Positions 1 through 58,664 of a stretch of DNA of 64,000 nucleotides are shown here, piece after piece (the stretch's first letter is position 1; every line of letters begins with the position of its first letter). The DNA comes from a virus. Lineage: Duplodnaviria > Caudoviricetes. Below the pieces are notes generated by a model. It saw only the letters and a list, made by a program, of their open reading frames with translations, had not been told where the DNA came from and did no database searches. The stretch lies in the IMG/VR virus record IMGVR_UViG_3300022591_000002, one strand, 5' to 3'. Made by a program: the position numbers and the translations under genes.

Positions 1-2646
1 GCAGTAGTTGGTACAACAAGCAATCCAGCATTTACAGCTTCTCCAGGTGCTATTACAATTAACGGTAACTCAATTACTGTTACAACAGCATCTACAGTAG
101 CAAGTATTTCTGCAAGTATTAACTCAGCATTGCACATCAAAGGTATTGGTGCTAAGGCTAATACATCAGGTAAGCTAGAACTATACACAGACTTGTATCC
201 AGGTAGTTTAACAGTTGCTGGTAATGCAACAACATTGAATTCACTAGGTATTCCAGCAGGTACATATAGCGGTCCTCAAATGACTGTTGCTCCTCATACA
301 CAATATCCTAACTACGGTACTGCACCTAGCGGATCTGTATACCTAAAGACTACAAGTCCTAACAGTGGTGCTCATTGGATTGTTAAACAATACTCTGCAT
401 CAACACAAGCATTTACACAAATTGCGGCTCCATTGTATAACAACTCTGCATCTGCATTGTATAACATTGACAAAACAGGCGGTGGTGCAAACATTCCAGT
501 TGGCACATTGTTTATTGAAGCAAGCTACGACCACGGTGATGGTTTTGCATCAACATCAACACAACGTCCAATCACATTGAACTTTGAAATTCAAAGACGT
601 GCCGCAGTTAGCCCAACAACTATTACAAGTAAAGCACTAAGTAGCTCTCCTACACTAGTTAATGGCACAACACTACAACTAAAAGAAAGTTTAGTTGGCC
701 AGTTGAATTATGGTAACGCAGTTACAGTAACAGTTCAAACTCCTAGTGCAGGCGATACATGGATTGGTGCGTTAGTAACAGCAATTAATTCTGCAGGTTT
801 AACAAACGTTACAGCACAGCACAACAGTGATGACACAATTACAATCACTCACGCAACTGGTGGCGACATTAAATTTAATGACCCTAACAACGTACTAGGT
901 ACAGTTGGCTTTACAGCATGGAATCAAAGTGCTCCAACAACTGCTTATACAACAAACTTCTACGCACTAGGCGAATACGAACCAGATGCTTTTGACTACA
1001 GAGCAAGTAACTGGGCTCCGTTAATCACAACAGCAAGCCCAAGCGAGCCAGTAACTTCCCCTGAAGATGGTACATTATGGTACAGCAGTATCACTGACCA
1101 AGTTGATATTATGTACAATGATGGTACACATTGGAAAGGTTATAGAAATGCATTCCCAAGTACAGATCCAAATGGCCCGATCATCAGTTCTACTCGTCCA
1201 ACAACACAAAGCGATGGACGTACAGCTCTTGCAGATGGCGACATCTGGATTGATCGTTCAGACATTGAAATGTACGGCTTAAACATCTATGTTTACAACG
1301 GCAATACATTGAAGTGGGTTAAACAAGATCCAGCAGATCAAACAAGTCCAACAGGTTGGGTGTTTGCTGATGCACGTTGGGCAACAAACGGTTACTCAAC
1401 AGCGCAATCATCAATTGCATCACTACTACGTTCAGACTTCTTAGACCCAGACGCACCAGATCCAGGCGGTTATCCACGTGGTACACGTCTATGGAACTTA
1501 CGTCGTTCAGGTTTCAACGTAAAACGTTACGAAGCAAACTATATCAATATCTATGCTAACAACGGTGTAAACCCACGTTACACAGAGCCAATGGATGGTT
1601 CAAACTCAACAACAGCATACGCAACATCACGTTGGGTAACTGTAAGTCCAAATCGTCCAGACGGTGCAGGTTCATTTGGTCGTCACGCACAACGTGGCTT
1701 TGTAGTATCAGCACTAAAAGCGTTGATTGATACAAACCAAACTATCCGCGATACAGACAGTTTAGTATTCAACTTGATTGCTTGCCCTGGTTATCCAGAA
1801 GCAGTACAGAATCTAGTTGCTCTAAACACAGACCGTGGACAAACAGCATTCGTTATTGGTGATACTCCATTCCGCTTACCTGCAAACGGTACAGCATTAC
1901 AAGCATGGGGCTTAAACACTAACGGCGCATTTGACAACGGCGATACAGGTGCTACAAGTTATGACGACTACATGGCATTCTTCTATCCAAGTGGTTTCAC
2001 AAACGACAACACAGGAAACTATATTGTTGTTCCACCAAGCCACATGATGTTACGTACATTCATCAACAGTGATGCTAAATCATACGAATGGTTTGCTCCA
2101 GCTGGTGTACGTCGTGGTAATGTAGATAACGCTACATCAGTAGGTTACATCGACGGCACAACCGGCGAGTTCCACACAACAGCGTTACCACAAGCATTAC
2201 GTGATGTGTTAGCAAAAACTAAGGTTAACCCAATTCCAACTCTAACAGGTTCTGGCATTGTTAACTTTGGTAACTATACTCGTGCTCCTGCGGCAAGTGC
2301 GTTAGATCGTATCAACGTTGCTCGTCTAGTTGCATATCTACGTAGACAGTTGGGCATTTTAGTAAGTCCATACTTATTTGAACCAAACGATCAAATTACA
2401 CGTAGCGAAGTTAAAAACGCAGTAGACAGTTTCTTGTTAGAACTTGTCGGACAACGTGCAATCTATGACTACTTGGTAGTTTGCGATACTAGCAACAATA
2501 CACCTGCTAGAATTGACAGATCAGAGTTATGGATCGACATAGCAATTGAGCCAGTTAAGGCAGTGGAATTCATTTATGTTCCAGTTCGCTTATTGAACAC
2601 AGGTGCAATTGCCGCTGGTAATTTAGGCGATATGTCAAAAGGTTAA
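1..2646 (+). CDS. gp18: Tail sheath protein (T4 gp18-like), 5'-truncated
   Basis: Frame is open from base 1. C-terminal sheath motifs (PPSHMMLRT, WFAPAGVRRG, DRINVARL, FEPND, IAIEPVKAVEFI); next to tail tube. Confidence 0.9.
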   Translation, partial: AVVGTTSNPAFTASPGAITINGNSITVTTASTVASISASINSALHIKGIGAKANTSGKLELYTDLYPGSLTVAGNATTLNSLGIPAGTYSGPQMTVAPHTQYPNYGTAPSGSVYLKTTSPNSGAHWIVKQYSASTQAFTQIAAPLYNNSASALYNIDKTGGGANIPVGTLFIEASYDHGDGFASTSTQRPITLNFEIQRRAAVSPTTITSKALSSSPTLVNGTTLQLKESLVGQLNYGNAVTVTVQTPSAGDTWIGALVTAINSAGLTNVTAQHNSDDTITITHATGGDIKFNDPNNVLGTVGFTAWNQSAPTTAYTTNFYALGEYEPDAFDYRASNWAPLITTASPSEPVTSPEDGTLWYSSITDQVDIMYNDGTHWKGYRNAFPSTDPNGPIISSTRPTTQSDGRTALADGDIWIDRSDIEMYGLNIYVYNGNTLKWVKQDPADQTSPTGWVFADARWATNGYSTAQSSIASLLRSDFLDPDAPDPGGYPRGTRLWNLRRSGFNVKRYEANYINIYANNGVNPRYTEPMDGSNSTTAYATSRWVTVSPNRPDGAGSFGRHAQRGFVVSALKALIDTNQTIRDTDSLVFNLIACPGYPEAVQNLVALNTDRGQTAFVIGDTPFRLPANGTALQAWGLNTNGAFDNGDTGATSYDDYMAFFYPSGFTNDNTGNYIVVPPSHMMLRTFINSDAKSYEWFAPAGVRRGNVDNATSVGYIDGTTGEFHTTALPQALRDVLAKTKVNPIPTLTGSGIVNFGNYTRAPAASALDRINVARLVAYLRRQLGILVSPYLFEPNDQITRSEVKNAVDSFLLELVGQRAIYDYLVVCDTSNNTPARIDRSELWIDIAIEPVKAVEFIYVPVRLLNTGAIAAGNLGDMSKG

Positions 2647-2680
2647 TAGGTTAAATAATAAGGAATAAGGAGCATTTAAG

Positions 2681-3307
2681 ATGGCAATCGCAAGTTTAAG
2701 CAAATTATCAGTTCCATTACCAGCAGGCCAAAGTGCAAGCAGTCAAGGCTTGTTGATGCCAAAACTGAAGTATCGCTTCAGAGTGCAACTACAGAATTTT
2801 GGTGTAACAAAGCCAACTACTGAAGTTACAAAGCAGGTAATGAACGTAACTCGTCCAAAGGTTACTTTTGAAAACATGGAACTTCATGTTTACAACTCAA
2901 AGGTTAACTATGCTGGCAAGTACACATGGGATCCGATCACACTAGTAATTCGTGATGATCAATCTAGTGCAGTAAGCAAGCTATGTGGCGAACAGATCCA
3001 GAAGCAATTCGACTTCTATGAACAAGCATCTGCAAGTTCAGGTATCGACTACAAGTTCACAACTGTAATTGAAATCCTAGACGGTGGTAATGGAGCATTT
3101 GATCCAACAGTTTTAGAAACATTCCAATTAATTGGTTGTTACGTAACTGATATTACATACCAACAAGTAGACTACTCAAGTTCAGAGGCGTTAGATATTA
3201 GCTTGTCTATCAAGTTTGACAACGCAATCCAAACAGATACTGCTGGCAATCCAGTTGGTATTGGTACAAACGTTGGACGTACATTAGGTACATTGGCTTC
3301 GGGTTAA
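2681..3307 (+). CDS. gp19: Tail tube protein (gp19-like)
   Basis: 208 aa directly after sheath; PKLKYRFRV, GKYTWDPITLVIRDD, FDNAIQ; AAGGAG RBS. Confidence 0.85.
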   Translation: MAIASLSKLSVPLPAGQSASSQGLLMPKLKYRFRVQLQNFGVTKPTTEVTKQVMNVTRPKVTFENMELHVYNSKVNYAGKYTWDPITLVIRDDQSSAVSKLCGEQIQKQFDFYEQASASSGIDYKFTTVIEILDGGNGAFDPTVLETFQLIGCYVTDITYQQVDYSSSEALDISLSIKFDNAIQTDTAGNPVGIGTNVGRTLGTLASG

Positions 3308-3321
3308 TCCTAAGCAAACAC

Positions 3322-3353
3322 AAAAAGGCCTGGTTTTTTCTAGGCCTTTTTTT
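3322..3353 (+). terminator. Rho-independent terminator
   Basis: AAAAAGGCCT/AGGCCTTTTT stem followed by a T-run. Confidence 0.85.
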
Positions 3354-3368
3354 ACGGCTAAATACTTC

Positions 3369-5120
3369 ATGCCAAACATTACCGACTTTTTATCTGGTGT
3401 CTTTTCAGGTGCTACCCATCCTAAAGGGACAATGGGCGACTTCCAGCATGCCGCTAGGTTATATACTGATAACTTATATGCTCTTACTCCAAAAGCAGGC
3501 TGGATGTACTATGCGTACTTTGTTATAAATCCCAAAGCGCAAACAGCAATTTCTGCAGGCGCTGATAAAACATCTAGCAGTTTATTAGGTACTATAGGAC
3601 AAGTCCTTGGTGGCGCTAATGTAAAAGGAATTATTTCCAACGGCAAGAATCAAAATCTTGAAGCAGGTATGTTAGTAAAAGCCGCAGACTTACCTAAGTT
3701 TCAAATACAAACAGAACAACTAAATCAGTACAACCGTCGTACTAATATTCAAACAAAAATAAATTATCAGCCAGTGACAATTAATTTTCACGATGATATG
3801 AGTAACACCACAAACGAGTTGTGGCAAAGTTATTTTAGATATTATTACGCAGATACAACTTACGGTAGTGCATCAAGTCCTACTACTGACTCTGCTAACC
3901 TTGCAACTAATCCTGCATACGGAAACACAAAATACTCAGCAACAACACCTGTACCTCCTAATGCATACGGTTTAAACAATAATCAAGGTGAGCCTTTTTT
4001 CCGTGCAATTATATTATATCAGTTGAATAGATCTGTATTCAATTCTTATATAATGATCAATCCATTAGTAACACAATGGGATCACGCACACTTAGATCAA
4101 TCGCAAAACAGTTTTTCAGAAAATAAAATGAGCTTTCAATACGAAACAGTATTTTATGGCAAGGGCAAAGTTAAACGAGATCAACCTCCTGGATTTGCTA
4201 CATTTCACTATGACACAACTCCAAGTCCATTAAGTATTCAAGGCGGCGGCACTGGAACACTATTTGGTCCAGGTGGAGTTATTTCAGGAGCTCAAGAATT
4301 ATTTGGCGGTAGCGACACAGGTCCTACAAGTATCTTAGGTACAGCTCTAGGTGTAGCTAACCTAGTAGGTAATGCAGGTAAACTTAATGCGGCTGGTATT
4401 AAAGCAGAAGGATATAGTATGCTTGGCGGAGTATTAGGCACTATTGGTAACAAAGGAAATATACCAGAAGGCTCGTACGGTGGCATCGGCGGCGGAATAG
4501 TCGGCGGAGCACTTAGCATCTTTAAGGGCGGCAATTCTAGTACTAACGGACAGACAAGTGCTAGTCAAAAATCAATAACCGGACAAGCGTCTAATCAGGA
4601 TAATCCAGCGGGAACTACTACACAGCCTGCACTAGCGGCCGCGGCAGTGGCCACAATTACTCCATTAAATTCTGCACTCTTACCAACAGACGTTGCAGAT
4701 TTAGAGTCGCTATCTGCTAGCAACACTGATCAAATTTCATTGTTAAACTCTAAAATTGCAGATGCTAAAACATTACAACCAAGCTATCTAGCAGAATTTG
4801 GTGCGGCGGCCGCAAGTGGCGGACAAGATGCAGTGGACGCAGTGAATTCTAAATATGCATCATTGGGCTATCAGGATCCTAATAAGTTACAGGCTAACTT
4901 AACAGTATTACAATCAAATCAAACAACAATTGATACTGCATTAAAAACAGCAAATCAAATATCAGCTCCAAATCAAACGTTGGCAAAAGATGATAACACT
5001 ACAGGTCCTCAGGATCCAAGTGCCGCTCTTAACACAGCAAAAAATCAAGATACAAATATAACTCAACAACCAGTTATACAAACAGCATCGGCTAATACAG
5101 CAGATTCATGGTACGAATAA
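3369..5120 (+). CDS. Baseplate-tail tube junction protein (gp48/gp54-like) with low-complexity C-terminus
   Basis: Tube-fold motif VKAADLPKF...NQYNR...YQPVTINFHDD; position in tail operon. Confidence 0.55.
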   Translation: MPNITDFLSGVFSGATHPKGTMGDFQHAARLYTDNLYALTPKAGWMYYAYFVINPKAQTAISAGADKTSSSLLGTIGQVLGGANVKGIISNGKNQNLEAGMLVKAADLPKFQIQTEQLNQYNRRTNIQTKINYQPVTINFHDDMSNTTNELWQSYFRYYYADTTYGSASSPTTDSANLATNPAYGNTKYSATTPVPPNAYGLNNNQGEPFFRAIILYQLNRSVFNSYIMINPLVTQWDHAHLDQSQNSFSENKMSFQYETVFYGKGKVKRDQPPGFATFHYDTTPSPLSIQGGGTGTLFGPGGVISGAQELFGGSDTGPTSILGTALGVANLVGNAGKLNAAGIKAEGYSMLGGVLGTIGNKGNIPEGSYGGIGGGIVGGALSIFKGGNSSTNGQTSASQKSITGQASNQDNPAGTTTQPALAAAAVATITPLNSALLPTDVADLESLSASNTDQISLLNSKIADAKTLQPSYLAEFGAAAASGGQDAVDAVNSKYASLGYQDPNKLQANLTVLQSNQTTIDTALKTANQISAPNQTLAKDDNTTGPQDPSAALNTAKNQDTNITQQPVIQTASANTADSWYE

Positions 5121-5121
5121 T

Positions 5122-5499
5122 ATGACAACAACTTATAATAATATTCCACAAGAAAAAGTTACAGACAGCGCACTAGCTACTGTACAGATGTTTAATCAGT
5201 ACGGCAGTCCTGTTGTTGCCTTAGATGCGGCAACTATAGATGCGGCTGTTGGATTTTTTACAAGTCGTGGCTTTGATAAGAATAGTGCAGAATCTATTGC
5301 CTACATTATTATGAAGCAGGCAAAACTAGACGGCTATAAACCTTTTCAAATTATTGACACACTTGGTGGATTAGATAATGTTCAAATATCTGCACTAGTT
5401 ACAGAACTACTAAACTATAACAGATACAAATCAAGCAGTCTTGGAATGGCACAAACGTTTATTCCTGTAGCAACTGTACAAAGAAATATTTTAGCCTAA
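5122..5499 (+). CDS. Hypothetical protein (tail/baseplate module)
   Basis: 125-aa ORF tightly packed in operon. Confidence 0.7.
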   Translation: MTTTYNNIPQEKVTDSALATVQMFNQYGSPVVALDAATIDAAVGFFTSRGFDKNSAESIAYIIMKQAKLDGYKPFQIIDTLGGLDNVQISALVTELLNYNRYKSSSLGMAQTFIPVATVQRNILA

Positions 5500-5939
5500 T
5501 GAGAAACACAGCAAAGGGTCCTTATCTATTAAAGAACCCAGAAAAATATATTGGTGGTGGTACACCTTATTATCGCAGTAGTTGGGAAGCCGCAGTTATG
5601 AAGATGTGTGACGAAAATGCATCTATAGAACAGTGGGCTAGCGAAGCAGTTAAGATTCCTTATCGTGATCCGTTAACTGGTAAAAACACAGTTTACGTAC
5701 CTGACTTTCTTGTAGTCTTTACAGATCGTAAAAATAAAAAGCATACAGAGTTATGGGAAGTAAAACCTATTAATCAAACTATGCTAGAAAGCGTTGGTAA
5801 AAATCCCTACAACCAAGGGCAGTATGTACGAAATCAAGTAAAGTGGGAAATGGCCAGACAGTGGGCTAGAGGTAGGGGAATACACTTTAGGATCCTCACA
5901 GAGGCCGATATTTTCCATACTGGTAAGAAAAAGCGATAA
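5499..5939 (+). CDS. gp4: Head completion nuclease (T4 gp4 / TnsA-like PD-(D/E)xK)
   Basis: YRSSWE, WASE..IPY, YVPDF, EVKP motifs. Confidence 0.75.
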   Translation: MRNTAKGPYLLKNPEKYIGGGTPYYRSSWEAAVMKMCDENASIEQWASEAVKIPYRDPLTGKNTVYVPDFLVVFTDRKNKKHTELWEVKPINQTMLESVGKNPYNQGQYVRNQVKWEMARQWARGRGIHFRILTEADIFHTGKKKR

Positions 5940-5947
5940 GTAAAGTT

Positions 5948-6436
5948 ATGACTAAAAAGCTAGAAGAACTGTTGGATATAGAACCTACTAAAAAAGTAGA
6001 ACCTGTAACCAAACCCGAATCTGTAGAAATAGCAGAAGTTCAGCACGTTGACCTACAGCAGAACTTAGAGCAGTTTGATAAGATCAGTGCCGCCCTCCCT
6101 CAGGTAAAAGGCCTGGGCGATATGAGCGATACAGAGTTAGATGGCCTAGCGGCAAAGGCAGAATCTGCATACGATGATCTAATGGATCTAGGTATGAACG
6201 TAGAAGCACGTTACGGAGCACGTATGTTTGAAGTAGCAGGTACAATGCTACAGGCCGCAATTAACGCTAAATCAGCTAAAATTGACAAAAAATTAAAAAT
6301 GGTAGAATTACAGCTGAAAAAGCTGGCTATTGATAAGAAGAACGGCCCTGCCGAAGATGGCATGGTTGAGGGGGAAGGTTACGTGATTTCTGACCGTAAT
6401 AGTCTCCTGGAAAAACTTAAAAATATGAATAAATAA
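5948..6436 (+). CDS. Putative terminase small subunit
   Basis: Helical/coiled 162-aa protein upstream of large terminase; positional inference. Confidence 0.4.
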   Translation: MTKKLEELLDIEPTKKVEPVTKPESVEIAEVQHVDLQQNLEQFDKISAALPQVKGLGDMSDTELDGLAAKAESAYDDLMDLGMNVEARYGARMFEVAGTMLQAAINAKSAKIDKKLKMVELQLKKLAIDKKNGPAEDGMVEGEGYVISDRNSLLEKLKNMNK

Positions 6437-6458
6437 TATACCAGGGAACTGATATAAC

Positions 6459-7049
6459 ATGAGATCATTTAAAGAATACTTAACAGAAAGCAAACGCACA
6501 TTTGACTTCAAAGTCAAGATTGCAGGAGACGTATCTGCTGACAGCGAAAAAATGCTAGAAACACTTTTACAGAAGTTTCAAATAGCTAGTTTCAAGAAAG
6601 CGGGCAAAACTCCTATTCAATCAGTTCCATTAGACTTTCCACTAATCAAACACGCAGAAGTTAATATCTACGAAGTAAGTTTAGATTACCCAACAACACA
6701 ATGGGAACTTCACGAGTACCTATCTAGCAATTTAAGAATAGGCAGAGACCAAATAGTAGTTCGCAATCCTTTTGAACCTACAGAAGAATACCAAGCTCCT
6801 AAAGCGGCACATGAAGGCACACTACTACAAGATCCTAATTTTACAGAAGTACCTAGCGTAGACAGCAAGAAGTACTACGGCACCGAATACAATTTGAGCT
6901 TTGTAAAAGCATTGAATGACACAATTAAGGCCCAACGTAAAGAACAAGGCCAACAAATTCCCACAGAGTCAGCCGCAACATATAATGTTGACTCCAAAGA
7001 AAACACAACCAGTCCGATACAACAATCTGACTATGATCCAAGGAAATAA
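6459..7049 (+). CDS. Hypothetical virion (head-internal?) protein
   Basis: N-terminus MRSFKEYLTE resembles T4 capsid-targeting sequence. Confidence 0.6.
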   Translation: MRSFKEYLTESKRTFDFKVKIAGDVSADSEKMLETLLQKFQIASFKKAGKTPIQSVPLDFPLIKHAEVNIYEVSLDYPTTQWELHEYLSSNLRIGRDQIVVRNPFEPTEEYQAPKAAHEGTLLQDPNFTEVPSVDSKKYYGTEYNLSFVKALNDTIKAQRKEQGQQIPTESAATYNVDSKENTTSPIQQSDYDPRK

Positions 7050-7051
7050 TT

Positions 7052-7933
7052 ATGCAAATGATCGACGTAATGAAACGCCTAGCAGAGTTGGATTCTACAA
7101 ATCCTAACGTTGTAAAGGCTGACTCAAAAGAACAAGAGTTCAATGCAGGTAACGCTGTTACTGGCATGAACAACTACACAGGCGAAACAGTTATCGCAGA
7201 AACTTTAAGTGTTGCCGAACTACAAAAATTATCTGGCTTGAACGAAAGTTTAGCAGAATGTGGTCCAATGGGTATGATGGGTGCCGGTCCAATGGGCATG
7301 GCATCTGCAAAACCAACTGCAAACTTTAGCCTAAACGCTTCAGCCGCGACAGGCGATGAAGTAGCAAGTATGCTTACACAAATCATGAACCTAGCAGGCG
7401 TTAAAGATGCAGGTCATCATTTAGGTACTCCAGATTCATTAACAGGCGAACCTCCAGCAGGTAGTCATCACGGCGCAGACGGCATGTCAGCACAAAGCGA
7501 CATTGCTAAGGCATTAGGTCACATTGATAGCATCGAAGACGAAGAAGCAGAAATGGGTGCGGATATGGGCGCAGACTTCAGCGGTCAAATTGGTCACGAA
7601 GTTGATACTAAGTCTCCAACAAACGGTGACGTTGGTGCAATGGCTGACCAAGTTCGCGGTATGGCAGATGAGCTAAGTGAAAAAGATCCAGAAGATTTTG
7701 ACGTTGCTGAAGAACTACGTTTATTTGACAATAGTCCAAAAGAGCAAACACGTGCTTACGATCCAAACGCATTTGCTGATGTAATTAACAGACTACGTGA
7801 CTTTGACACAGTTCCAGCACGTGGTGGTGATAATCCACTAAAGGCACACGCAACTGAGGCAGTTAAATCGGCAGACGACACAGGCTCACTAGCAGAACAA
7901 CTAATGGCAGAATTTCAACAGTTTAAAGGCTAA
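7052..7933 (+). CDS. Acidic hypothetical protein (head-associated?)
   Basis: 293-aa D/E-rich ORF with host-like codon style. Confidence 0.65.
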   Translation: MQMIDVMKRLAELDSTNPNVVKADSKEQEFNAGNAVTGMNNYTGETVIAETLSVAELQKLSGLNESLAECGPMGMMGAGPMGMASAKPTANFSLNASAATGDEVASMLTQIMNLAGVKDAGHHLGTPDSLTGEPPAGSHHGADGMSAQSDIAKALGHIDSIEDEEAEMGADMGADFSGQIGHEVDTKSPTNGDVGAMADQVRGMADELSEKDPEDFDVAEELRLFDNSPKEQTRAYDPNAFADVINRLRDFDTVPARGGDNPLKAHATEAVKSADDTGSLAEQLMAEFQQFKG

Positions 7934-7949
7934 TCAAATATAGCTTTCC

Positions 7950-7977
7950 AAATAGGCTCTTCGGAGCCTATTTTTTT
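7950..7977 (+). terminator. Rho-independent terminator
   Basis: AAATAGGCTC-TTCG-GAGCCTATTTTTTT. Confidence 0.9.
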
Positions 7978-7991
7978 CATTAAATAAACGC

Positions 7992-9578
7992 ATGTCATTA
8001 AACAAAGATACAACGTTAATTAAGACAGCTCATAAAACTGTAAAGTTTAGTGAGCAAGACTTACTTGACCTGCAAGAATGTTCTAATTTAGAAACTGGAC
8101 ACAAATATTTCTTAAAACATTTCTTTGCAATCCAACATCCTACTCGTGGTAAAATACAGTACGAAGCATACGGTTATCAAGAAGCACTTGTAGATAGTCT
8201 ACACAACTATCGCTTCAACGTAAACATGTTGCCACGACAGTCGGGTAAGACCACAACGGCCGTAGGCTACTTGTTGTGGTACGCTATGTTCAATCCAGAT
8301 CAAACATTGTTAATTGCGGCGCACAAATACACTGGTGCTCAAGAAATTATGCAACGTATTCGTTACGCATATGAATTGTGTCCTGATCATATTCGTTGTG
8401 GTGTTACAAGTTATAATAAACAGTCAATTGAATTTGATAACGGCTCGCGTATTGTTGCACAAACAACAACTGAAAACACAGGTCGTGGTATGTCTATATC
8501 ACTACTATACTGTGACGAGTTTGCGTTCGTTCCGCCAAACATTGCCACTGAATTCTGGACTTCAATTTCACCTACACTAGCTACTGGTGGTAAGGCAATT
8601 ATTACATCGACACCTAACTCAGACGAAGATCAGTTTGCTGAAATTTGGTTTGGTGCTAACCGTAAGTTCAACGAGTACGGAGATGAACAAGAAGTAGGGG
8701 AAAATGGTTTCCACCCTTACATTAGCCATTGGTCCGATCATCCAGATCGTGATGATGCATGGGCTAAGGTAGAAATGGGACGCATTGGAGAAGAAAGATT
8801 CCGACGTGAATATGGTTGTGAATTCTTGATCTACGATGAAACACTGATCAGCAGTTTAGCACTTGCAGAAATGTCAGGTGTAGATCCTAAATACAGACAA
8901 GGGCAGGTACGTTGGTACAAGAACATTGACCCACGTATGACCTACATAGTAGCCCATGACCCTAGTCTAGGTACAGGTGGAGATCACGCTGGTATTCAAA
9001 TTATAGAAATTCCAACATTTGAACAAGCGGGAGAATGGCAACACAATCTAACCCCTGTACAAGCACAAGTTCGTATCTTGCGAGACATTTGTAAGTTTAT
9101 TAACGAAGAATGTCAAAAAGTAGGATCAACGGCCAACATATATTATTCAGTTGAAAACAACACGCTAGGTGAAGCGGCCTTAATAGCAATTAGCGAAATA
9201 GGTGAAGAAAGTATTCCAGGTATGTTCTTAAGTGAGCCACTAAAGAAAGGACATGTTCGCCGTTTCCGTAAGGGCTTTAACACAACCCAAAAAGCTAAGA
9301 TCAGTGCCTGTGCCAAACTAAAACATCTAGTTGAGCACAAAACACTCAAGATATACAGCAAGCCCTTAATTACAGAACTTAAAGGTTTTATTGCAGGTGG
9401 TGCAAGTTTTGAAGCAAAAACAGGACAACATGACGACCTAGTGCTGGCATTATTGCTAGCTGTACGTATGATTATGATGTTACAAGACTGGGATCCTGCA
9501 ATCTACGAGAAATTTAACGAACATGCAGACGATGATGCGGTTATGCCAATGCCCATATACATCAGCGGTATAGCATAA
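7992..9578 (+). CDS. gp17: Terminase large subunit (gp17-like)
   Basis: Walker A PRQSGKTT, Walker B LLYCDEFAF, TSTPN, RNase H-like AHDPS and HDDLV. Confidence 0.95.
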   Translation: MSLNKDTTLIKTAHKTVKFSEQDLLDLQECSNLETGHKYFLKHFFAIQHPTRGKIQYEAYGYQEALVDSLHNYRFNVNMLPRQSGKTTTAVGYLLWYAMFNPDQTLLIAAHKYTGAQEIMQRIRYAYELCPDHIRCGVTSYNKQSIEFDNGSRIVAQTTTENTGRGMSISLLYCDEFAFVPPNIATEFWTSISPTLATGGKAIITSTPNSDEDQFAEIWFGANRKFNEYGDEQEVGENGFHPYISHWSDHPDRDDAWAKVEMGRIGEERFRREYGCEFLIYDETLISSLALAEMSGVDPKYRQGQVRWYKNIDPRMTYIVAHDPSLGTGGDHAGIQIIEIPTFEQAGEWQHNLTPVQAQVRILRDICKFINEECQKVGSTANIYYSVENNTLGEAALIAISEIGEESIPGMFLSEPLKKGHVRRFRKGFNTTQKAKISACAKLKHLVEHKTLKIYSKPLITELKGFIAGGASFEAKTGQHDDLVLALLLAVRMIMMLQDWDPAIYEKFNEHADDDAVMPMPIYISGIA

Positions 9579-9587
9579 ATATACTTT

Positions 9588-11648: not shown

Positions 11649-11684
11649 TTGGCTAAAATAACCAGTTTTTCCTGCTGGTAAAAG

Positions 11685-11729
11685 TTGACAGGATAAATAA
11701 AAACGCATACAATTACAGTATGCGTTTTT
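11685..11729 (+). promoter_or_regulatory. sigma70 promoter with nested late motif and 12-bp hairpin upstream of ssb
   Basis: TTGACA 11685-90, 17-bp spacer, TACAAT 11708-13; TAAATA 11694-99; inverted repeat AAAAACGCATAC/GTATGCGTTTTT. Confidence 0.75.
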
Positions 11730-12816: not shown

Positions 12817-12831
12817 TTTAGGAGATAGACT

Positions 12832-17767: not shown

Positions 17768-17772
17768 AAAAA

Positions 17773-50124: not shown

Positions 50125-50132
50125 GTACGAAG

Positions 50133-50339
50133 ATGAGCGACTCAGCTGTAAGAAGTCTAGCCAAAGCAGTTAGTTGGCGAGTAACAGGAACTATAGATAC
50201 CTTTATCATTAGCTGGTTGATTACGGGTCAAGCCTTACTAGCCAGCGGAATTGCATTTACAGAAATTATGACAAAAATATTATTATTCTGGGCTCACGAA
50301 AGAGTATGGAATAAAATTAGTTGGGGGAAGGATGACTAA
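50133..50339 (+). CDS. DUF2061-like small membrane protein
   Basis: RSLAKAVSWR...HERVWNKISWG. Confidence 0.75.
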   Translation: MSDSAVRSLAKAVSWRVTGTIDTFIISWLITGQALLASGIAFTEIMTKILLFWAHERVWNKISWGKDD

Positions 50340-52032
50340 ACGTATTACTACTCTTGCGTTTAGTATGGCTTTAACTACAGATTACAATTTCCCTTACGTA
50401 CACATACTATTCAAACAGCATTACAAAGTCTTTGGAAAATACCCTGAACAATACGAATGGGTAGATCCGGATTATCTTACGCAAGATATAGAACCTTCTA
50501 TTGTTGCTGATTGGGTTGTTGATAATAAAATTGATATTGTGTTTGCAAGTATGTACTTGTGGAATCATCAATATACTCACATGATCCTTAAAGAAATTAA
50601 GGAACGTAATCCAAACATAACAATCATTGCAGGCGGCCCTCATGTCTTTGGCAATGATCCTGTGTACTTTGAAGAACACCCTTGGGTTGATATCGTTTCA
50701 GATGCTAAAGTATACGGCGAAGCATTCATTGTTGATTATCTTAACGGCAATGAACTAGCTGACGTTACAGGAGCAATTTGGGCAACTGGCAAAAGTAATA
50801 AAAAATTTAACATACGAGATTTTGAATGGGCTCCTAGAGTCTATGCTGACAATATTGACTATGTCAAGAAAGTCATTGCAATGGCTAAATCAGCTTCGAT
50901 GCCAGCCGTAGTTGGATTTGCTATTGAAACTAGTAGAGGATGCCCATTTGCCTGTACCTTCTGTGAGTGGGGTGGCGGCATTGCTACCAAGATGAGTAAA
51001 AAAGATCTAGCCGATGTTAAAGCAGATGTTGCGGCGTTAATATCTGCTAAGGCAGAACGATTCCATATATGTGATAGCAACTTTGGTTTTTGGGACGAAG
51101 ATGTAGCTCTGCTCAAACAAATTGCGGCATCTAATAGAATTGTAGGGTTTCCTAAAGTTGTTACTATCTATGGATGGAGTAAGAATAATAACAAGCGCCA
51201 TTATGAAATGTGTAAGATAATGGCCAACTCAACTATCGAAGGCTTCTATTATGCTCTAAGCATACAAGGGCTGAACGAGTTAACATTACAACAAATTAAA
51301 CGATCTGATTCGCCACTAGAAGATAGATGGGCATTAGCTAGAAAGATATCACAAGACTTCAAAACAAAAGTTCACGTTGAAATCCTAATGGGATTACCGG
51401 GTGACAAATTAGTTGACTATTATAAGATTTTAAACAAACGACATGAATTAGATGCGTTCTCTCATTATGTCTGGATGTTGTTACCAAACACCGAAGCCCA
51501 TACAAAAGAGTACAGAGAAAAGTACAGTCTTAAAACAGCATGGGCGCATAATGTACAACCTAGCTTCATAAAACACAAAGGTCAAAAGATTAACAAAGAA
51601 CTAACGGCCGCTCATGCAAAAAACAGATACGAATATGTAGTTGGCAGTTATTCTTTAGATCCAGAAGAGTGGCTAGAAGTATTCATGCTTGAACGGTTGT
51701 ATAATACAGCAAAGAAGCATACAATAGTATGGCCAGTGTTAGAAGCAAAGCGTGTTCAACTAGGACTTCATCCAAGCGTGTTTTGGAAAAAGATCATGCG
51801 TAACTTTAATAAAATAGATAGTCCAGAGTGGAAGTCTATATGGGAAGACATGTGGCCAAAAATACATAAAATGGTTGAGCCATTACAACCTGGAGAAATC
51901 AGGTACATGGGATCAGCAGGTATTGAAGATGGACACTCTGTGCATCTAAGTGATGTTGCTATTATGTTTTTTGAAAAGTACACAGACAAGTTGTTAGCAT
52001 TAGTTGAACAGGATCAGGAAGGATTACAATGA
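50332..52032 (+). CDS. B12-binding-domain-type radical SAM enzyme
   Basis: N-terminal SMYLWN...IIAGGPH; ETSRGCPFACTFCEW; ICDSNFG. Confidence 0.85.
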   Translation: MTKRITTLAFSMALTTDYNFPYVHILFKQHYKVFGKYPEQYEWVDPDYLTQDIEPSIVADWVVDNKIDIVFASMYLWNHQYTHMILKEIKERNPNITIIAGGPHVFGNDPVYFEEHPWVDIVSDAKVYGEAFIVDYLNGNELADVTGAIWATGKSNKKFNIRDFEWAPRVYADNIDYVKKVIAMAKSASMPAVVGFAIETSRGCPFACTFCEWGGGIATKMSKKDLADVKADVAALISAKAERFHICDSNFGFWDEDVALLKQIAASNRIVGFPKVVTIYGWSKNNNKRHYEMCKIMANSTIEGFYYALSIQGLNELTLQQIKRSDSPLEDRWALARKISQDFKTKVHVEILMGLPGDKLVDYYKILNKRHELDAFSHYVWMLLPNTEAHTKEYREKYSLKTAWAHNVQPSFIKHKGQKINKELTAAHAKNRYEYVVGSYSLDPEEWLEVFMLERLYNTAKKHTIVWPVLEAKRVQLGLHPSVFWKKIMRNFNKIDSPEWKSIWEDMWPKIHKMVEPLQPGEIRYMGSAGIEDGHSVHLSDVAIMFFEKYTDKLLALVEQDQEGLQ

Positions 52033-52763
52033 TAGGAATTATTGGGTATGGTATGGTTGGTAAAGCAGTTGAGTATGGATTTAAAAATACTCAAGTGATT
52101 GTGTCTGACCCTGCGTATGGAATAACAGACATTGTTGATGTTGTCCAAGCTGATCCAGAAGTTATATTTGTATGTGTTCCTACTCCTACAGATGACGACA
52201 AATATAGTTTGTTACGTGGCGTCCTTAAGGATATAAAGCAAACAGGCTATACAGGATTGATTGTTGTAAAGAGTACAGTATTACCGCAGTACATAGAAGA
52301 TTTTGATGTATTATACAATCCTGAGTTTCTAAGCAGAGCAACAGCTAACACAGACTTTACTAATCCTCCTATGTTGATCATAGGTGGTGATCCAATCAAA
52401 GCAAAAGAGTTACTGTCAATATATAAAAAGTATTCAACTGTGGTAACAGACAAAGTATTCATTACAGATATTAAAACTGCTAGCCTAGCCAAATATGCAA
52501 TGAATAGTTTTTACGCTACCAAGGTTACATTTATGAATCAAATGTACGAAGTAGCAGAACAAGTTGGTGCAGACTGGAACAGCGTAACTAATATCTTAAA
52601 AGAACATCCTTGGATGGGAACACATCACTTTGCTGTGCCCGGACCAGATGGTAGCAGAGGATTTGGTGGCCCTTGCTTGCCTAAAGACACAGAAGCATTA
52701 GTTAAAGAGTTTGATGTTGAGTTATTAAGAACTGTACTAGAAATAAACAAAAATTACAGATAA
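52029..52763 (+). CDS. ugd: UDP-glucose/GDP-mannose dehydrogenase (short form)
   Basis: GYGMVG, FVCVPTP, KSTVLP, NPEFL, KYAMNSFYATK, GFGGPCLPKD. Confidence 0.9.
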   Translation: MIGIIGYGMVGKAVEYGFKNTQVIVSDPAYGITDIVDVVQADPEVIFVCVPTPTDDDKYSLLRGVLKDIKQTGYTGLIVVKSTVLPQYIEDFDVLYNPEFLSRATANTDFTNPPMLIIGGDPIKAKELLSIYKKYSTVVTDKVFITDIKTASLAKYAMNSFYATKVTFMNQMYEVAEQVGADWNSVTNILKEHPWMGTHHFAVPGPDGSRGFGGPCLPKDTEALVKEFDVELLRTVLEINKNYR

Positions 52764-53296
52764 GTTTTACTACGCTCTGCAATCAATTTTGCTTGTCGTC
52801 TGTAGTCGTCAAAGTCAAACCCTGTAGGTGTAATCTTTTCAACTGAAACCATAATTCTTAATTTGTCAGGATCAATATTGAATACTGAATGTGGGCTCTT
52901 AACATCTATAGTATGCCACACACCTTTTGGTATAACATGATCCTCAATAATCTCGCTATTGTTGTCAATGCTAGTGTGCCACGCAGTATGAGTTTCGCCA
53001 CCTGTTTCAATTAAAAAACTTGTTACTGATTCTATTCCAGAATCGACGTGCGGCGGAAACACATTCTTAATTGTTCTAACGTGCAATTTATAAATTGGGC
53101 CCAGATCAAAGTATTGTTTGATCCATGTCTCTAATTGTTTTGGAGGATTGTATATGCAAAAATTATCAAATATGTCACCAAAGCCAGACACATTATCGTT
53201 ACCAATTACAGTTTTAGCTAACTCTTGTAAGTGTACTGGTAATGCAGGTATTTCCGGATGGTATGTAACGAATCGACTATTTTCCATTGACTTCAT
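52754..53296 (-). CDS. Cupin/dioxygenase-like protein
   Basis: PPHVDSG, WHTIDVKSPHSV, LRIMVSV. Confidence 0.55.
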   Translation of the reverse strand: MKSMENSRFVTYHPEIPALPVHLQELAKTVIGNDNVSGFGDIFDNFCIYNPPKQLETWIKQYFDLGPIYKLHVRTIKNVFPPHVDSGIESVTSFLIETGGETHTAWHTSIDNNSEIIEDHVIPKGVWHTIDVKSPHSVFNIDPDKLRIMVSVEKITPTGFDFDDYRRQAKLIAERSKTYL

Positions 53297-53356
53297 TCCT
53301 AATGTATGTTAATATTTAATCTATAAATACCTTTATAACAACAAATATGGACAACT

Positions 53357-54463
53357 ATGGTAATTGATCTTAATGTAACCAGCACGTGCAACCTAGCATG
53401 TACCTACTGCTCCGAAGGATATGAGTGCGGATTATCCACCGCCTATGAAGAAAATACAGAAGTAACACTAGACGACATTGAAGAATTCATGTCAAAGATT
53501 GATGACCCAAAACGTGACATTTACTTTTGGGGTGGCGAGCCTTTTGTTAACTGGGAATTCTGTCGCGGTGTTATGGAGAAGTATAAAGACAATCCAAACT
53601 ACAGCTTCTTCTTTTATACCAACGGCGTATACCTAAAGAAATACCTAAAAGAACTTGTACGCTTTCATGAAGCAATGCCAGATCGTTTGAAGATACAGGT
53701 TTCATATGATGGCAAACCTGTTAATGATTTAACACGCTTTGACAAAGCAGGCAATCCCAGTTCTGCAATGGTTAAGAGCAACTACAAGGCCGCTAAAGAA
53801 GCAGGCCTTAATGTTAAAATGAAATCAGTGTTACCTGCAGAACACTTTGATAAAATTTACGAAGCATTCTTAGATGTTATCTCAATGAACGATAACTACT
53901 TCCCAACACCAGACTTATACTCACAGTTAACAGAGGAAGAGTTTGCTCCTAGATTAGAAGTATTGAAACAAGGTCTAGCTAAGATCGCCAAGCACATCTA
54001 TACACATAAGCTACCTCCTGAAAAGTTTGGTTGGTTTATGCAAAGTCGTGCTCTATGCTCCTCTGGTATTAATTATGTATCAGTAGACTTAAACGGAGAC
54101 ATCAGTCCATGTCACGGTTGCATGTACAAAGAGTCACATGCACACGTTATGGGCAATATTTTAAAGACTCCAGACATTGATGCACTGATTAAAGAAAAGA
54201 CAGAAATGTACAAAGGTGCTTTAGCCAATCAACCTTTAATGTGTCAATCATGTGATAGCCAATTTTGTATGAAGTGCAATAGTGCTACTTACGAAAAAAG
54301 CGAAAAAGAAACATATCTTGAAAAATGGTCTGATCACACAAGTAATTGGCAAGTGTGCAAGGTATTCAAAACTAACGAAATTGTCCATCACGCATTGCGC
54401 ACCGCTCTTAAGACTTACAAGAAACCTAAGTTTGAAATTAAAGCGGAACAATGTAGCCTATGA
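53357..54463 (+). CDS. Radical SAM/SPASM enzyme 1
   Basis: CNLACTYC, WGGEP; SPASM CSSG..GDISPCHGC and CQSCDSQFCMKC. Confidence 0.9.
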   Translation: MVIDLNVTSTCNLACTYCSEGYECGLSTAYEENTEVTLDDIEEFMSKIDDPKRDIYFWGGEPFVNWEFCRGVMEKYKDNPNYSFFFYTNGVYLKKYLKELVRFHEAMPDRLKIQVSYDGKPVNDLTRFDKAGNPSSAMVKSNYKAAKEAGLNVKMKSVLPAEHFDKIYEAFLDVISMNDNYFPTPDLYSQLTEEEFAPRLEVLKQGLAKIAKHIYTHKLPPEKFGWFMQSRALCSSGINYVSVDLNGDISPCHGCMYKESHAHVMGNILKTPDIDALIKEKTEMYKGALANQPLMCQSCDSQFCMKCNSATYEKSEKETYLEKWSDHTSNWQVCKVFKTNEIVHHALRTALKTYKKPKFEIKAEQCSL

Positions 54464-55374
54464 TGCAAACAGTTATTCCAAAGATTGTTAGTGCTGGATC
54501 AAAGGACTTTGAAGAAGTTTCCTTTGGTTGGTTGCTGACTGATTGGTGTAACTATGATTGCAGTTATTGTTCTAGCAAAGGTTGGCTAGTTGATAAGTTT
54601 GATAGAAGCAAATATCGCACAGCTTTAATTGTTCCATTTCGATTAAAAAATATAGACGTAAACTTTACAATTGATCTAGCAGGTGGTGAGCCAACGGTTC
54701 ATCCTTATCTTAATGAGATACTTAAAAGCCTAGCTGATATCAATGCTTGCAAACGCATTGTAGTTAATACAAACCTTTCTAGATCATTGCGTTACTTTAA
54801 GAATCTATACAAACATGATAAGATTATGATATCAGCTTCTTATCATGTTGAACACGATAATGAAGACTTTGTTAAGAAATGCCTAGAGCTTAAGAACGAT
54901 AACTTTGTTGTTCATATTAATATTATTGATAATCCCATACACTGGCCTGCAATACTAAAACTAATTGAAACGTGTAGAGCAAATGATATCAATTATGCAT
55001 TTAATTCGTTGCACTCTACTGAGTATAAAGAAATAAATTATACTCCAGAATGTTTTGAAATGTTCAACGACCTTAATACAACTATTAAAGACCGTTACTA
55101 CTACGCATATGAAGACGGTACTACAGAACATCTTAGCTCATTTGAAATTAAACAAAAAAGCCTACACAAGTTTTTAGGTTATAAGTGTACAACACTAAAA
55201 TATCAAATACAATTTGATGGACGCATTGTTAGAGAATGTAACAGAGAACCAGTTACAGCTATGTTTCCAAAACGCAAAGACTTTTTTAAAACAATAACAT
55301 GTCCGCAAGCACAAGGGTGCGATTGCGATGTGATGCTAAATTATTACAAGGAATTACCCAATGTTTACGCTTGA
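54460..55374 (+). CDS. Radical SAM enzyme 2 (twitch-like C-terminus)
   Basis: CNYDCSYC, AGGEPT, NTNLS; C..DGRIVREC..CPQAQGCDC. Confidence 0.85.
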   Translation: MMQTVIPKIVSAGSKDFEEVSFGWLLTDWCNYDCSYCSSKGWLVDKFDRSKYRTALIVPFRLKNIDVNFTIDLAGGEPTVHPYLNEILKSLADINACKRIVVNTNLSRSLRYFKNLYKHDKIMISASYHVEHDNEDFVKKCLELKNDNFVVHINIIDNPIHWPAILKLIETCRANDINYAFNSLHSTEYKEINYTPECFEMFNDLNTTIKDRYYYAYEDGTTEHLSSFEIKQKSLHKFLGYKCTTLKYQIQFDGRIVRECNREPVTAMFPKRKDFFKTITCPQAQGCDCDVMLNYYKELPNVYA

Positions 55375-56485
55375 AATATCCGTAACTGAAAAATGTAACT
55401 TAGGTTGTCCCTACTGTTATGTTGCCAATCGCCCTACATGGATGACTCCAGAAGTTTTTGACAACGCTATGCCAGAGCTATACAATCTAATGTCTCGCAG
55501 TGGAGATAGAGACTATTATGTTAGTTTCTTTGGCGGAGAACCTCTGTTAAACTTTGATTTGATCAAATATGCTGTTCCTAAACTAAAAGCAGATCCAAGA
55601 TGTAAAGGTATTAACATCATTACCAATCTAACTATGATCGATGATGAAAAATACAAGTTTATTAAAGAGAACAATGTAGGAGTTAGTTGGAGTTTTGATG
55701 GAATGAGTTCTAACACCACTCGTCCATTGTTGCCCTTGTTAGAAAACACTAATCCAGAAACTGGCGAGTTGTTCAACGGCATCCTCGATATGTACAACTT
55801 TAAGAAGGATCTTATTATGGATCTAACTAACGGTTGTAAAGTTATGATATGGCCAGGCAATACTAAAGACATGGCAGAGAACTTTGAGTTCTTGCTGGAC
55901 TGGGGCATTGCACACCCTGACTTCAGTATTGTACGTGATGACGTTTGGAAGCGTGACGACATTCTAGAGTTTGGTGTTGAGTGTGAACGTCTAGCTACTG
56001 CATGGATCTCAAAGATTAAACAAGGCATACCATGTTCAGTTGGCTTCCTACGCCTAGCTATATTAGATATCTTGTTTGGGCTTGTAAAAGGTAAACGAGC
56101 GTTTGGTTGCTTTGCAGGAACTAACGGTGGTGTGCTTATGAGCTCAGGAGAGTTTTATCCTTGTGCTCGCTTTGCAAGTAAAAAGATTATGAAAATGGAT
56201 AGTGAATATGATTTCCAGTACTATCAAAAGATATTCAATCCACACAGCTATGACAAATGCCAACCCTGCGATCTTAAGCAGGTATGTAACGCAGGATGTA
56301 CTTACAGTCAAGTAACCAATGACAACAAGCCGTTAGACAGTATCTGTGAATTGTTCCATATCTATTATCAACAGGCTATGCGTGTTGTAGAAGAGTGCAA
56401 AGATGAACCTTTGTTCCAAGATTTAATATTGCATTATCTTGATAACATTGGTGTAGAAAATGAAGGTGTAGAATGCAGGAACTAA
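55361..56485 (+). CDS. Radical SAM/SPASM enzyme 3
   Basis: CNLGCPYC, FGGEPLL; CFAG..GEFYPC; CQPCDLKQVCNAGC. Confidence 0.92.
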   Translation: MFTLEISVTEKCNLGCPYCYVANRPTWMTPEVFDNAMPELYNLMSRSGDRDYYVSFFGGEPLLNFDLIKYAVPKLKADPRCKGINIITNLTMIDDEKYKFIKENNVGVSWSFDGMSSNTTRPLLPLLENTNPETGELFNGILDMYNFKKDLIMDLTNGCKVMIWPGNTKDMAENFEFLLDWGIAHPDFSIVRDDVWKRDDILEFGVECERLATAWISKIKQGIPCSVGFLRLAILDILFGLVKGKRAFGCFAGTNGGVLMSSGEFYPCARFASKKIMKMDSEYDFQYYQKIFNPHSYDKCQPCDLKQVCNAGCTYSQVTNDNKPLDSICELFHIYYQQAMRVVEECKDEPLFQDLILHYLDNIGVENEGVECRN

Positions 56486-56814
56486 AACCTAAAAAGACTT
56501 ATCGTAGTATTACCAGCATCCCTGTTAAGGTTGAAATGCAACCTGTTGAACACAAGGCTGATCGCGTATTAACTACAGATGAACTACAAGAACAAATTGA
56601 AGAAGCACGTAAAGGTAAAGCCAAAGTAGACAGCAAGTACGTAGGTTTTGAGTTAGACGAACGCGGCCATCTGTTTGAATACAAATATGATTATGTTCGC
56701 TATCTAGATAATATGAGTCATATTATTAAAGAAGCTAAGGCACGTAAAAAGAGTAAAGCTGATGACCTTTATCAGAATACACATAAAATGCGTATAAGCA
56801 ATTCACCAACATGA
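56473..56814 (+). CDS. Hypothetical protein within the radical SAM operon
   Basis: Overlaps both neighbouring rSAM genes. Confidence 0.65.
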   Translation: MQELKPKKTYRSITSIPVKVEMQPVEHKADRVLTTDELQEQIEEARKGKAKVDSKYVGFELDERGHLFEYKYDYVRYLDNMSHIIKEAKARKKSKADDLYQNTHKMRISNSPT

Positions 56815-57701
56815 TACCTATTGTAATAGATAAACATCCTAACGCAGATTTCTACGTTGGTGACCAAACAGATAAACCTACTCCAGAAGGATCTGGAGTC
56901 AATGTCTTGTACTTTACTAACAAGTGCAATCTAGCTTGTACATATTGCTATGAAGATTTGCCAGGCCGTCCTCCGCAGATTATGACCAAGGATGAAATCA
57001 GAGAATCTATTGATGCTATCATTGCTAGAGAAAAGCCTGAGAATCAAACGCTGATTGTATTGTTTGGCGGTGAAGCAACACTAGAGTGGGAAAACGTTTG
57101 CTATGCTATGGAATATGCTTACAGCAAGAAAACTAATCTACATTTTAATCTTACTACTAATGGTATCAAATATCTAAGCCAAAAGTTTATTGATGAAACT
57201 ATAGGTAACTATTTTTATAAGAAACGTATGTTGAGTATTGACATTAGCTTCGATGGCATAGGCAACGGTGATCGTATTTTTCATAACGGCAAAGACAGCA
57301 CCGGATCTATGCTAGAGGTGTTGCGTAATTTGGTAAAAAACAATGTTAGATATAGACTACGATATACTATTCAAAAGAATAACATAGATCACTGGTATGA
57401 AGATGCGCACCATATTATTAAAACATTTAAACCCTTGCGATTCATTACATCAGTTGCTTGGTCTACGTTAGATCCTGATACCGACTTTGATAAACTTGAC
57501 ACCGCTAAGTTGAAGTTTAGAGCCGACTGGGTAGAAAAGAAGTTAAGTGTGCCCGTTTGCGAGCTGTTTTGCGACATGTGTAACGGATGCGGCGAACGAA
57601 AAGAACTAAAAACCTACTTTACCAATGAAGGTAATGTAACAACTTACGGGAATTATGAGAACTCTCCAAAGTTCCATGATTTCAAAGAAAAAATACAATA
57701 A
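56811..57701 (+). CDS. Radical SAM enzyme 4
   Basis: CNLACTYC, FGGEAT, TTNG, ISFDG; short CELFCDMCNGC tail. Confidence 0.88.
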   Translation: MIPIVIDKHPNADFYVGDQTDKPTPEGSGVNVLYFTNKCNLACTYCYEDLPGRPPQIMTKDEIRESIDAIIAREKPENQTLIVLFGGEATLEWENVCYAMEYAYSKKTNLHFNLTTNGIKYLSQKFIDETIGNYFYKKRMLSIDISFDGIGNGDRIFHNGKDSTGSMLEVLRNLVKNNVRYRLRYTIQKNNIDHWYEDAHHIIKTFKPLRFITSVAWSTLDPDTDFDKLDTAKLKFRADWVEKKLSVPVCELFCDMCNGCGERKELKTYFTNEGNVTTYGNYENSPKFHDFKEKIQ

Positions 57702-57725
57702 ATAACAAACTAAGAGAGATAATCT

Positions 57726-58133
57726 ATGACTAATAACGACACCCCAACTAACACCGTAATTATTGATAAGCTAAATCACATATTTGAGCTTATTTGTGAA
57801 ATTTCAGCAGAAGATCAGGCGCTTGGCGTCCTTCTTAAAGAGTTTTATACCCTATCGCTAAAAACAGCATCTGAGATTGCACAGCACGGTGGTGACAGAG
57901 ATAAAATTGATATTAGTCAGCATATTAGCATCATCAGCAATATATTAGGTGCTGATGTTCGTGCAATGATGGAACAGGTATTATTAGATCTATCTGCACA
58001 ACAGGTAGAATCAAATAAAGAAGCCGACTCTGCAACTTTAGAATTTATTACTTCTGATTTAGATGATTATGAAAAGTTCATTGCTCAAAACAAAGCTAAA
58101 GAAAGTTTAGATTTTCTTTCAAAAGAAATTTAA
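57726..58133 (+). CDS. Helical acidic hypothetical protein
   Basis: ORF between rSAM 4 and the Cys-rich protein. Confidence 0.65.
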   Translation: MTNNDTPTNTVIIDKLNHIFELICEISAEDQALGVLLKEFYTLSLKTASEIAQHGGDRDKIDISQHISIISNILGADVRAMMEQVLLDLSAQQVESNKEADSATLEFITSDLDDYEKFIAQNKAKESLDFLSKEI

Positions 58134-58145
58134 GGATTTAAGCAT

Positions 58146-58664
58146 ATGGGAAGTCGTAATATATCATCGTTTGACGGAAGCAAGTACGGAGTATCGTATT
58201 CTATATCATCACCTAGTGCCGGAGCAACAATTCAGTCAACCGACTTTGATACTCTAGTTGCAAGATACAATGATGAGTATGTAAGACGTAATCAAGGAAA
58301 TCCCGGTATTGGCCATCCAACTGGTACTATTTCGTCAGATACAATCAAAGGGTGGGCTAATGGCCTAAATGGTTTAGGAGGTCAAGGTGCTACAGGTAAT
58401 AGTTTAGGCGACCCTGGGCAAGACGTTAACTCAACAACCATTAGTCAAATTAATCAAGGTGCGGCATTTTCTGGTGCAGGTGGCGGAGCTCCTGGAAACA
58501 TATCTGGCGGTAATGTGTTTTATGCATCCGACTTTACAGGAGTAGCAAACGCAGTTATTAATGCAGGTGCTCAATGTTTATGTAATTGCAACTACTGTAC
58601 TTGTAATTGTAACTACTGTACCTGTAACTGCGATTACTCATGTACCTGTAACTGTAACTATTAA
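58146..58664 (+). CDS. Gly/Ser-rich protein with 12-Cys C-terminal repeat; putative radical SAM substrate
   Basis: Ends CLCNCNY CTCNCNY CTCNCDYS CTCNCNY; TAAGGA RBS. Confidence 0.8.
   Translation: MGSRNISSFDGSKYGVSYSISSPSAGATIQSTDFDTLVARYNDEYVRRNQGNPGIGHPTGTISSDTIKGWANGLNGLGGQGATGNSLGDPGQDVNSTTISQINQGAAFSGAGGGAPGNISGGNVFYASDFTGVANAVINAGAQCLCNCNYCTCNCNYCTCNCDYSCTCNCNY

Follow-up and report, generated by a model that had tools for sequence, protein, structure and literature searches.

Staphylococcus phage K, which lacks GATC, is a classic case of restriction-site avoidance, and chloroviruses encode restriction enzymes that degrade host DNA while protecting themselves with a cognate methylase. 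Avoidance of restriction sites, as short palindromes, has been surveyed in virulent double-stranded DNA phages by Rusinov et al. 2018 (PMC6286503). Phage DNA may also be protected by modification: the 7-deazaguanine modification made by phage DpdA protects from restriction (PMC6884629), and the DpdA of phage CAjan, the sole DpdA with a determined motif before that of phage iggy, substitutes G in GA, GGC, and GGT (PMC10484667). Here, we analyze a 64,000-nucleotide stretch of viral DNA (IMG/VR record IMGVR_UViG_3300022591_000002; hereafter, the window), in which positions 1 to 58664 belong to a jumbo phage and lack the pentamer GCWGC (GCAGC or GCTGC) altogether. As in known cases of phage site avoidance, a restriction-type word has been removed by synonymous recoding, further palindromes are in deficit, and related phages have the trait in common. 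Unlike in those cases, not one copy is left over at least 58.7 kb, other words in the same DNA are purged only in certain flanking contexts, and the enzyme is putative.

GCWGC counts and codon choice

The original prediction held that GCWGC is absent before position 58780, and exact counting bears this out. Neither GCAGC nor GCTGC occurs in positions 1 to 58779, and the earliest site lies at 58780. For the jumbo-phage segment (1 to 58664), the expected number of sites is 65 from base composition, 107 and 106 from first- and second-order Markov models, and 92.9 from the third-order (maximal) model, against 0 observed (z = -9.6; Poisson P ~4.5e-41). The large deficit that had been anticipated therefore stands, with the rough figure of several tens of expected sites replaced by 92.9. 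Every block of ~10 kb along the segment is empty, against 10 to 21 sites expected in each. The G+C content of the window is ~40%, with a higher value of 45 to 48% in the middle part between 26 and 46 kb.

The absence is specific to this word. The runner-up among depleted pentamers is the pair TCAGA/TCTGA, with 55 observed against 102 expected (z = -4.7), so the Markov-corrected scan returned neither a near-expectation count for GCWGC nor a similar depletion among other pentamers. The sister word GCSGC is at or above expectation in the same segment, with 65 GCGGC against 51 and 39 GCCGC against 33. The return of GCWGC after 58780 is also real: 21 sites lie in 58780 to 64000, and the density beyond 58664 is normal (21 against 22.1 expected). 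However, this contrast had been read as a property of the phage, and it is not one; sites return at 58780 because the contig is joined to DNA of a different, small phage, as described below.

Synonymous codon choice in every reading frame, together with some amino acid change, produced the purge. Of the alanine codons in the jumbo-phage segment, 76% are GCA or GCT, yet none of these 768 codons is followed by a GCN codon, and all 59 Ala-Ala pairs open with GCC or GCG. The original prediction had argued from this very pattern, and its argument is exact, as are its three example sequences, which we located at 4635, 4803, and 33995. The remaining two frames hold no site either (NGC-AGC, NGC-TGC, G-CAG-C, and G-CTG-C each number 0), and the word is missing from both strands and from intergenic DNA as well as from all three frames. 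Ala-Ala pairs are only mildly rare, at 59 against the ~74 expected from alanine frequency, indicating that the purge is mostly synonymous. Unpurged relatives have GCWGC at 10 positions of the large terminase gene (TerL) at which the amino acids are conserved, and at all 10 the window carries synonymous codons instead.

Distribution of the purge and the flank rule

Related jumbo phages of a deep clade have inherited the GCWGC purge. Over whole related contigs, 0 of 136 expected sites are observed in G001 (about 80 kb), 0 of 164 in G003 (120 kb), and 21 of 336 in G002 (IMGVR_UViG_3300032240_001498, 200 kb). Among 80 loci flanking TerL, 47 are purged (observed/expected GCWGC < 0.1), 25 are normal, and 8 are intermediate. 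A TerL phylogeny of 81 rows, built under LG+G4 with support from the Shimodaira-Hasegawa-like approximate likelihood ratio test (SH-aLRT), places the purged loci in two clades, one of 20 rows that includes the window and one of 30 rows, both with 100% SH-aLRT support. Normal clades sit between the two purged ones, indicating more than one gain or loss of the purge. The long-term selection proposed in the original prediction gains support from this inheritance in a deep clade, together with the synonymous recoding and the specificity for GCWGC.

The sites that survive in relatives follow a simple rule. We refer to a site as flanked when its outer G or C is doubled (GGCWGC or GCWGCC) and as bare when it is not. 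All GCWGC remaining in the 47 purged loci is of the flanked form. The same holds for 21 of 21 surviving sites in G002, 14 of 14 in locus L029, 11 of 11 in L033, 7 of 7 in L006, 6 of 6 in L007, and 22 of 23 in L051; the flanked share among sites of unpurged loci is 17 to 39%. When expectations are split by form, most intermediate loci have almost no bare sites and a number of flanked sites near expectation, as in L029 (flanked, 14 against 10 expected; bare, 0 against 14) and L033 (flanked, 11 against 8; bare, 0 against 15). The jumbo-phage segment of the window lacks both forms, with 0 flanked sites against 41 expected and 0 bare sites against 65. The family therefore displays three states, namely, a full purge, a flank-conditional purge, and none, and the window represents the full purge.

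GCWGC is not the only word affected: a wider word scan shows that other restriction-type palindromes are purged too, which fits a defense-driven cause. The window is entirely without AAGCTT (0 against 12.4 expected) and GTGCAC (0 against 8.5). Three further palindromes are purged conditionally in the window, where the bare and flanked counts are 1 against 10.3 expected and 6 against 5.4 for CTGCAG, 0 against 8.0 and 5 against 5.1 for GCATGC, and 0 against 6.5 and 2 against 3.4 for CGTACG. Pooled over these three words, 1 bare site is observed against 24.8 expected (P ~4e-10). The 8 copies of GTGCAC that survive in G001 to G003 are all GGTGCAC or GTGCACC. RCTAGY is wholly absent from G002 (0 against 73 expected; ACTAGT, 0 against 21.8; GCTAGC, 0 against 15.1). 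The window shows no such purge, having 17 copies of ACTAGT and 15 of GCTAGC. AGCGCT numbers 0 in each of G001 to G003, where the expectation for G002 is 17.1. The purged words thus vary by lineage, as expected of host restriction repertoires.

Two other depletions were seen alongside these. TCNGA, a word of the Hpy188I type, is moderately depleted in positions 1 to 58664 (72 against 127 expected), as are CATG, CGCG, TGCA, and GCGC, possibly as weaker signs of avoidance. Among hexamers, TAAATA shows the strongest depletion in each of G001, G002, and G003 (91 against 185 expected in G002, for example), and it may be kept for use in promoters.

Candidate agents of the purge

We favor, with moderate confidence, ordinary restriction-site avoidance directed against a sequence-specific endonuclease that the phage meets in its hosts. 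Two kinds of enzyme would fit, namely, a Type IIP enzyme like TseI/ApeKI, with GCWGC as its target, and a Type IIS enzyme like BbvI, with GCAGC as its target in either orientation; since both forbid identical words, the missing words do not tell them apart. Strong selection over a long time would have kept the jumbo lineage free of GCWGC. The recognition words of TseI/ApeKI and BbvI are exactly the missing set, a match in specificity only, unlike those of Fnu4HI and BisI, which also read GCSGC, a word not avoided here.

From the flank rule, we infer that the jumbo-phage family carries a context-specific modification of the G in GG steps and perhaps also in GA steps. Such a G-purine mark would protect sites that contain or abut a GG or GA step. 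GCWGC has no G before A or G, so the mark could not protect it internally, and selection would remove it. For some relatives, protection would need no more than a mark at position -1 (GGCWGC). The jumbo-phage segment of the window purges even GGCWGC while tolerating flanked CTGCAG and GCATGC, which suggests that the agent reading GCWGC in this lineage ignores the mark. The proposed mark resembles the specificity of the CAjan DpdA in two respects: the surviving words carry a G directly 5' of GC or GT (a GGC or GGT context) or, for the other strand, a C directly 3', and the near-complete 6-mer purges in the window and G001 to G003 hit only palindromes without an internal GA or GG. Unlike in DpdA-protected phage DNA, the putative mark does not rescue GGCWGC in the window lineage. 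No dpdA or preQ0-pathway genes were found in the window.

Several points weigh against host restriction as the cause. No GCWGC endonuclease gene was encountered in a host or in this DNA, and with the purge present in two clades, GCWGC-cutting enzymes would need to be very widespread among aquatic bacteria. GCWGC is fully purged where other words follow the flank rule, a special case that leaves room for a different agent. The search for modification genes in 16 related contigs (1.2 Mb), all of them fragments that are 7 to 55% complete, returned no TGT-family gene (PF01702) and no C5 or N4/N6 methyltransferase (PF00145, PF01555). Chloroflexi provide a weak host lead because the phage has only ~40% G+C and because single-molecule real-time (SMRT) sequencing detects 5-methylcytosine poorly, and for the latter reason the confinement of GCWGC methylation to this phylum in environmental surveys counts only weakly against the preferred explanation. 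In these methylome surveys of lake and ocean (PMC6329791, PMC8919816), GCWGC methylation is reported only in Chloroflexi metagenome-assembled genomes and not in Betaproteobacteria, where the original prediction had proposed to look for it. Contrary to the hope expressed there, the purge does little to point to a host, given that it is present in at least two separate clades of the family, and nothing in the data speaks for or against freshwater Betaproteobacteria.

A possible, if rather doubtful, alternative to host restriction is self-avoidance, in which the phage would encode its own GCWGC endonuclease without a partner methylase, aim it at host or competitor DNA, and owe its immunity to having no sites. 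Chlorovirus enzymes provide the model of a virus-encoded site-specific nuclease, the one here being putative; unlike in chloroviruses, which use a cognate methylase, self-protection would come from the absent sites. The absoluteness of the purge speaks for this explanation, as it extends to flanked sites, the form in which other words of the same DNA would be spared by the putative mark. However, other words are purged in lineage-specific sets, which one phage nuclease cannot explain, and no nuclease genes were recognized in the window. G002, in which all bare GCWGC is purged, has its clamp loader and phoH genes adjacent, with nothing between them. The corresponding gap in 80 relatives holds ThyX, small open reading frames (ORFs), SufBD, and other genes, with no recognized nuclease. 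A cluster of ~225 amino acids (aa) in this gap was considered as a nuclease candidate and rejected, as it is ThyX and occurs in purged and unpurged DNA alike. The RE_Bsp6I family (PF09504) had no match in the 16 related contigs, an uninformative result since control genomes likewise had none. A scan of 164 DNA stretches (2683 ORFs) found no purge-specific nuclease-like cluster, and its purge-only ORF clusters had no informative Pfam hit, the scan being confounded by the set of loci and region covered and by phylogeny. We consider it unlikely that the absolute purge reflects self-immunity to a methylase-less endonuclease while the G modification shields other restriction words, with the repeated switches among the three purge states on the TerL tree tracking gain and loss of the nuclease.

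The original prediction also allowed for a methyl-directed system, in this case a Type IIM/IV, BisI-like enzyme that would cut phage DNA in one host after it had been methylated at GCWGC in the previous one. BisI-family enzymes are reported to cut within methylated GCNGC (PMC4926085), which provides a precedent. Yet a BisI-type site is GCNGC, and GCSGC is spared; the relatives' contig fragments hold no C5 or N4/N6 methyltransferase, and a relay between two hosts would be required, making this explanation very improbable. Chance, mutational bias (e.g., loss of methylated sites by deamination), an effect of codon pairs on translation, and sequencing artifact have a negligible probability and are rejected on the counts, given P ~1e-40, the emptiness of every frame, of either strand, and of intergenic DNA, the fact that mutational decay gives partial depletion rather than 0 of >390 sites expected in the window, G001, and G003 together, and the 21 sites in the foreign 5.3 kb of the same contig, from which the library or assembler evidently did not remove the word.

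Gene content and the right-hand end of the window

Judged by its genes, the segment from 1 to 58664 is part of an uncultured jumbo myovirus with an estimated genome of about 350 kb. Among its products are a tail sheath, a tail tube, TerL, SSB, a UvsX-like recombinase, helicases, a primase, and DnaB, as well as an AlgH-like protein, oxygenases of the 2OG-Fe(II) and TauD types, and five radical-SAM enzymes encoded in one block (Table 1). The window TerL is 52% identical to that of the Pseudomonas jumbo phage PA5oct and 63 to 90% identical to those of 80 IMG/VR contigs; a megablast search with positions 1 to 20000 found no match among GenBank phages. The genome size follows from CheckV, which scores the 200-kb relative as 55% complete. 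Positions 5948 to 49346 are collinear with G001 (81.5 kb), whose TerL is 90% identical.

Table 1. Coordinates of features in the window
Feature	Position	Strand	Evidence or remark
Jumbo-myovirus segment, no GCWGC on either strand	1-58664		0 vs 92.9 expected
Alanine run GCG-GCC-GCG-GCA avoiding GCWGC	4635-4646	+	Exact match, codon-pair statistics
SleB-type cell-wall hydrolases	35834-36424, 46245-46952		Pfam
Sole tRNA-Met (CAT) gene	40625-40701	-	Within higher-GC 26-46 kb part
2OG-Fe(II) oxygenase-domain proteins	42513-43865, 44196-44786		Pfam
TauD-family dioxygenase	47904-48950		Pfam
Variable region, five radical-SAM genes and Cys-repeat ORF	49347-58664	+	Pfam hits; tblastn vs G001-G003
Radical-SAM, B12-binding type	50332-52032		Pfam
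Radical-SAM, SPASM type	53357-54463		Pfam
Three further radical-SAM genes	54460-55374, 55361-56485, 56811-57701		Pfam
Junction of jumbo-phage and small-phage DNA	58665-58686		L102 nucleotide homology begins at 58686; unrelated upstream
Truncated gene, C-terminal 251 residues of 863-aa virion protein (L102:8168-10759)	58678-59442	+
Fragment of ~35-kb small phage: tail-collar fiber, holin, endolysin, RecE-like exonuclease	58686-64000		PHROG hits

The variable region has no homolog in G001 to G003 by tblastn, apart from a weak match in G002 to the ORF at 52029 to 52763 (38%). It is free of GCWGC (0 against 10.0 expected), which points to the same purge history as that of the jumbo phage. Its five consecutive radical-SAM genes form a cluster resembling those for ribosomally synthesized and post-translationally modified peptides (window 50332 to 58664). 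The run is followed by two small ORFs and then by a 172-aa ORF (58146 to 58664) that ends in C-N-C-N-Y-C-T-like repeats and is a possible precursor peptide.

The right-hand end of the window is DNA of another phage. From 58686 to 64000, the window shares 85 to 90% nucleotide identity and gene order with IMGVR_UViG_3300032236_000163 (locus L102), a GCWGC-rich small phage of 34.9 kb with 99 sites in 19.7 kb. The ORF at 58678 to 59442 matches residues 4 to 254 in a tblastn comparison with the 863-aa protein of L102 (86% identity). As a correction to the original prediction, the counts place the end of the purge only within about 56.8 to 58.7 kb, where 2 sites are expected, and homology narrows it to 58665 to 58686. 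Related jumbo-phage contigs searched as DNA with window positions 56800 to 64000 gave no match. A T4-type late promoter, TATAAATA, was uninformative as a junction marker, with 2 copies in the whole window. The fragment weakly resembles the Methylophilales phage Venkman, a similarity that we rejected as a host clue for the jumbo phage since it belongs to this fragment only.

We consider the join quite likely to be an assembly chimera because the breakpoint lies inside a gene, because a self-contained small-phage module is attached, and because full GCWGC density adjoins 58.7 kb that lack the word. The rival reading, in which the jumbo phage really did acquire the small-phage DNA very recently, appears unlikely. 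The junction does fall in a 13-nt gap, with AAAGG and an ATG before the truncated ORF as in a normal intergenic spacer, and the foreign end differs only mildly in composition, its tetranucleotide distance being within ~1.5 standard deviations of jumbo-phage chunks. However, homology begins within the small-phage gene for the 863-aa protein, the small phage's own fiber, lysis, and recombination genes follow in native order, and nothing similar occurs in any relative examined. Moreover, 21 sites at full density would undo a selected trait.

Our analysis adds exact statistics for the window, the mid-gene join, and the distribution of three purge states on one family tree, along with the observation that the window is flank independent for GCWGC yet flank conditional for CTGCAG and GCATGC. 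The purge serves as a sensitive marker of which DNA is the phage's own and exposes the probably chimeric contig end, so that 58665 to 64000 should be trimmed before the genome is analyzed as one phage. The contrast between flank-conditional and flank-independent purges would provide a readout, from sequence only, of probable modification sites in phage DNA, and it predicts one GCWGC-cutting agent that is indifferent to the modification. The purged set (GCWGC, AAGCTT, GTGCAC, bare CTGCAG, and bare GCATGC) would be a negative print of the nucleases that the phage meets, and the purge in the window a clean and extreme example of a known anti-restriction strategy.

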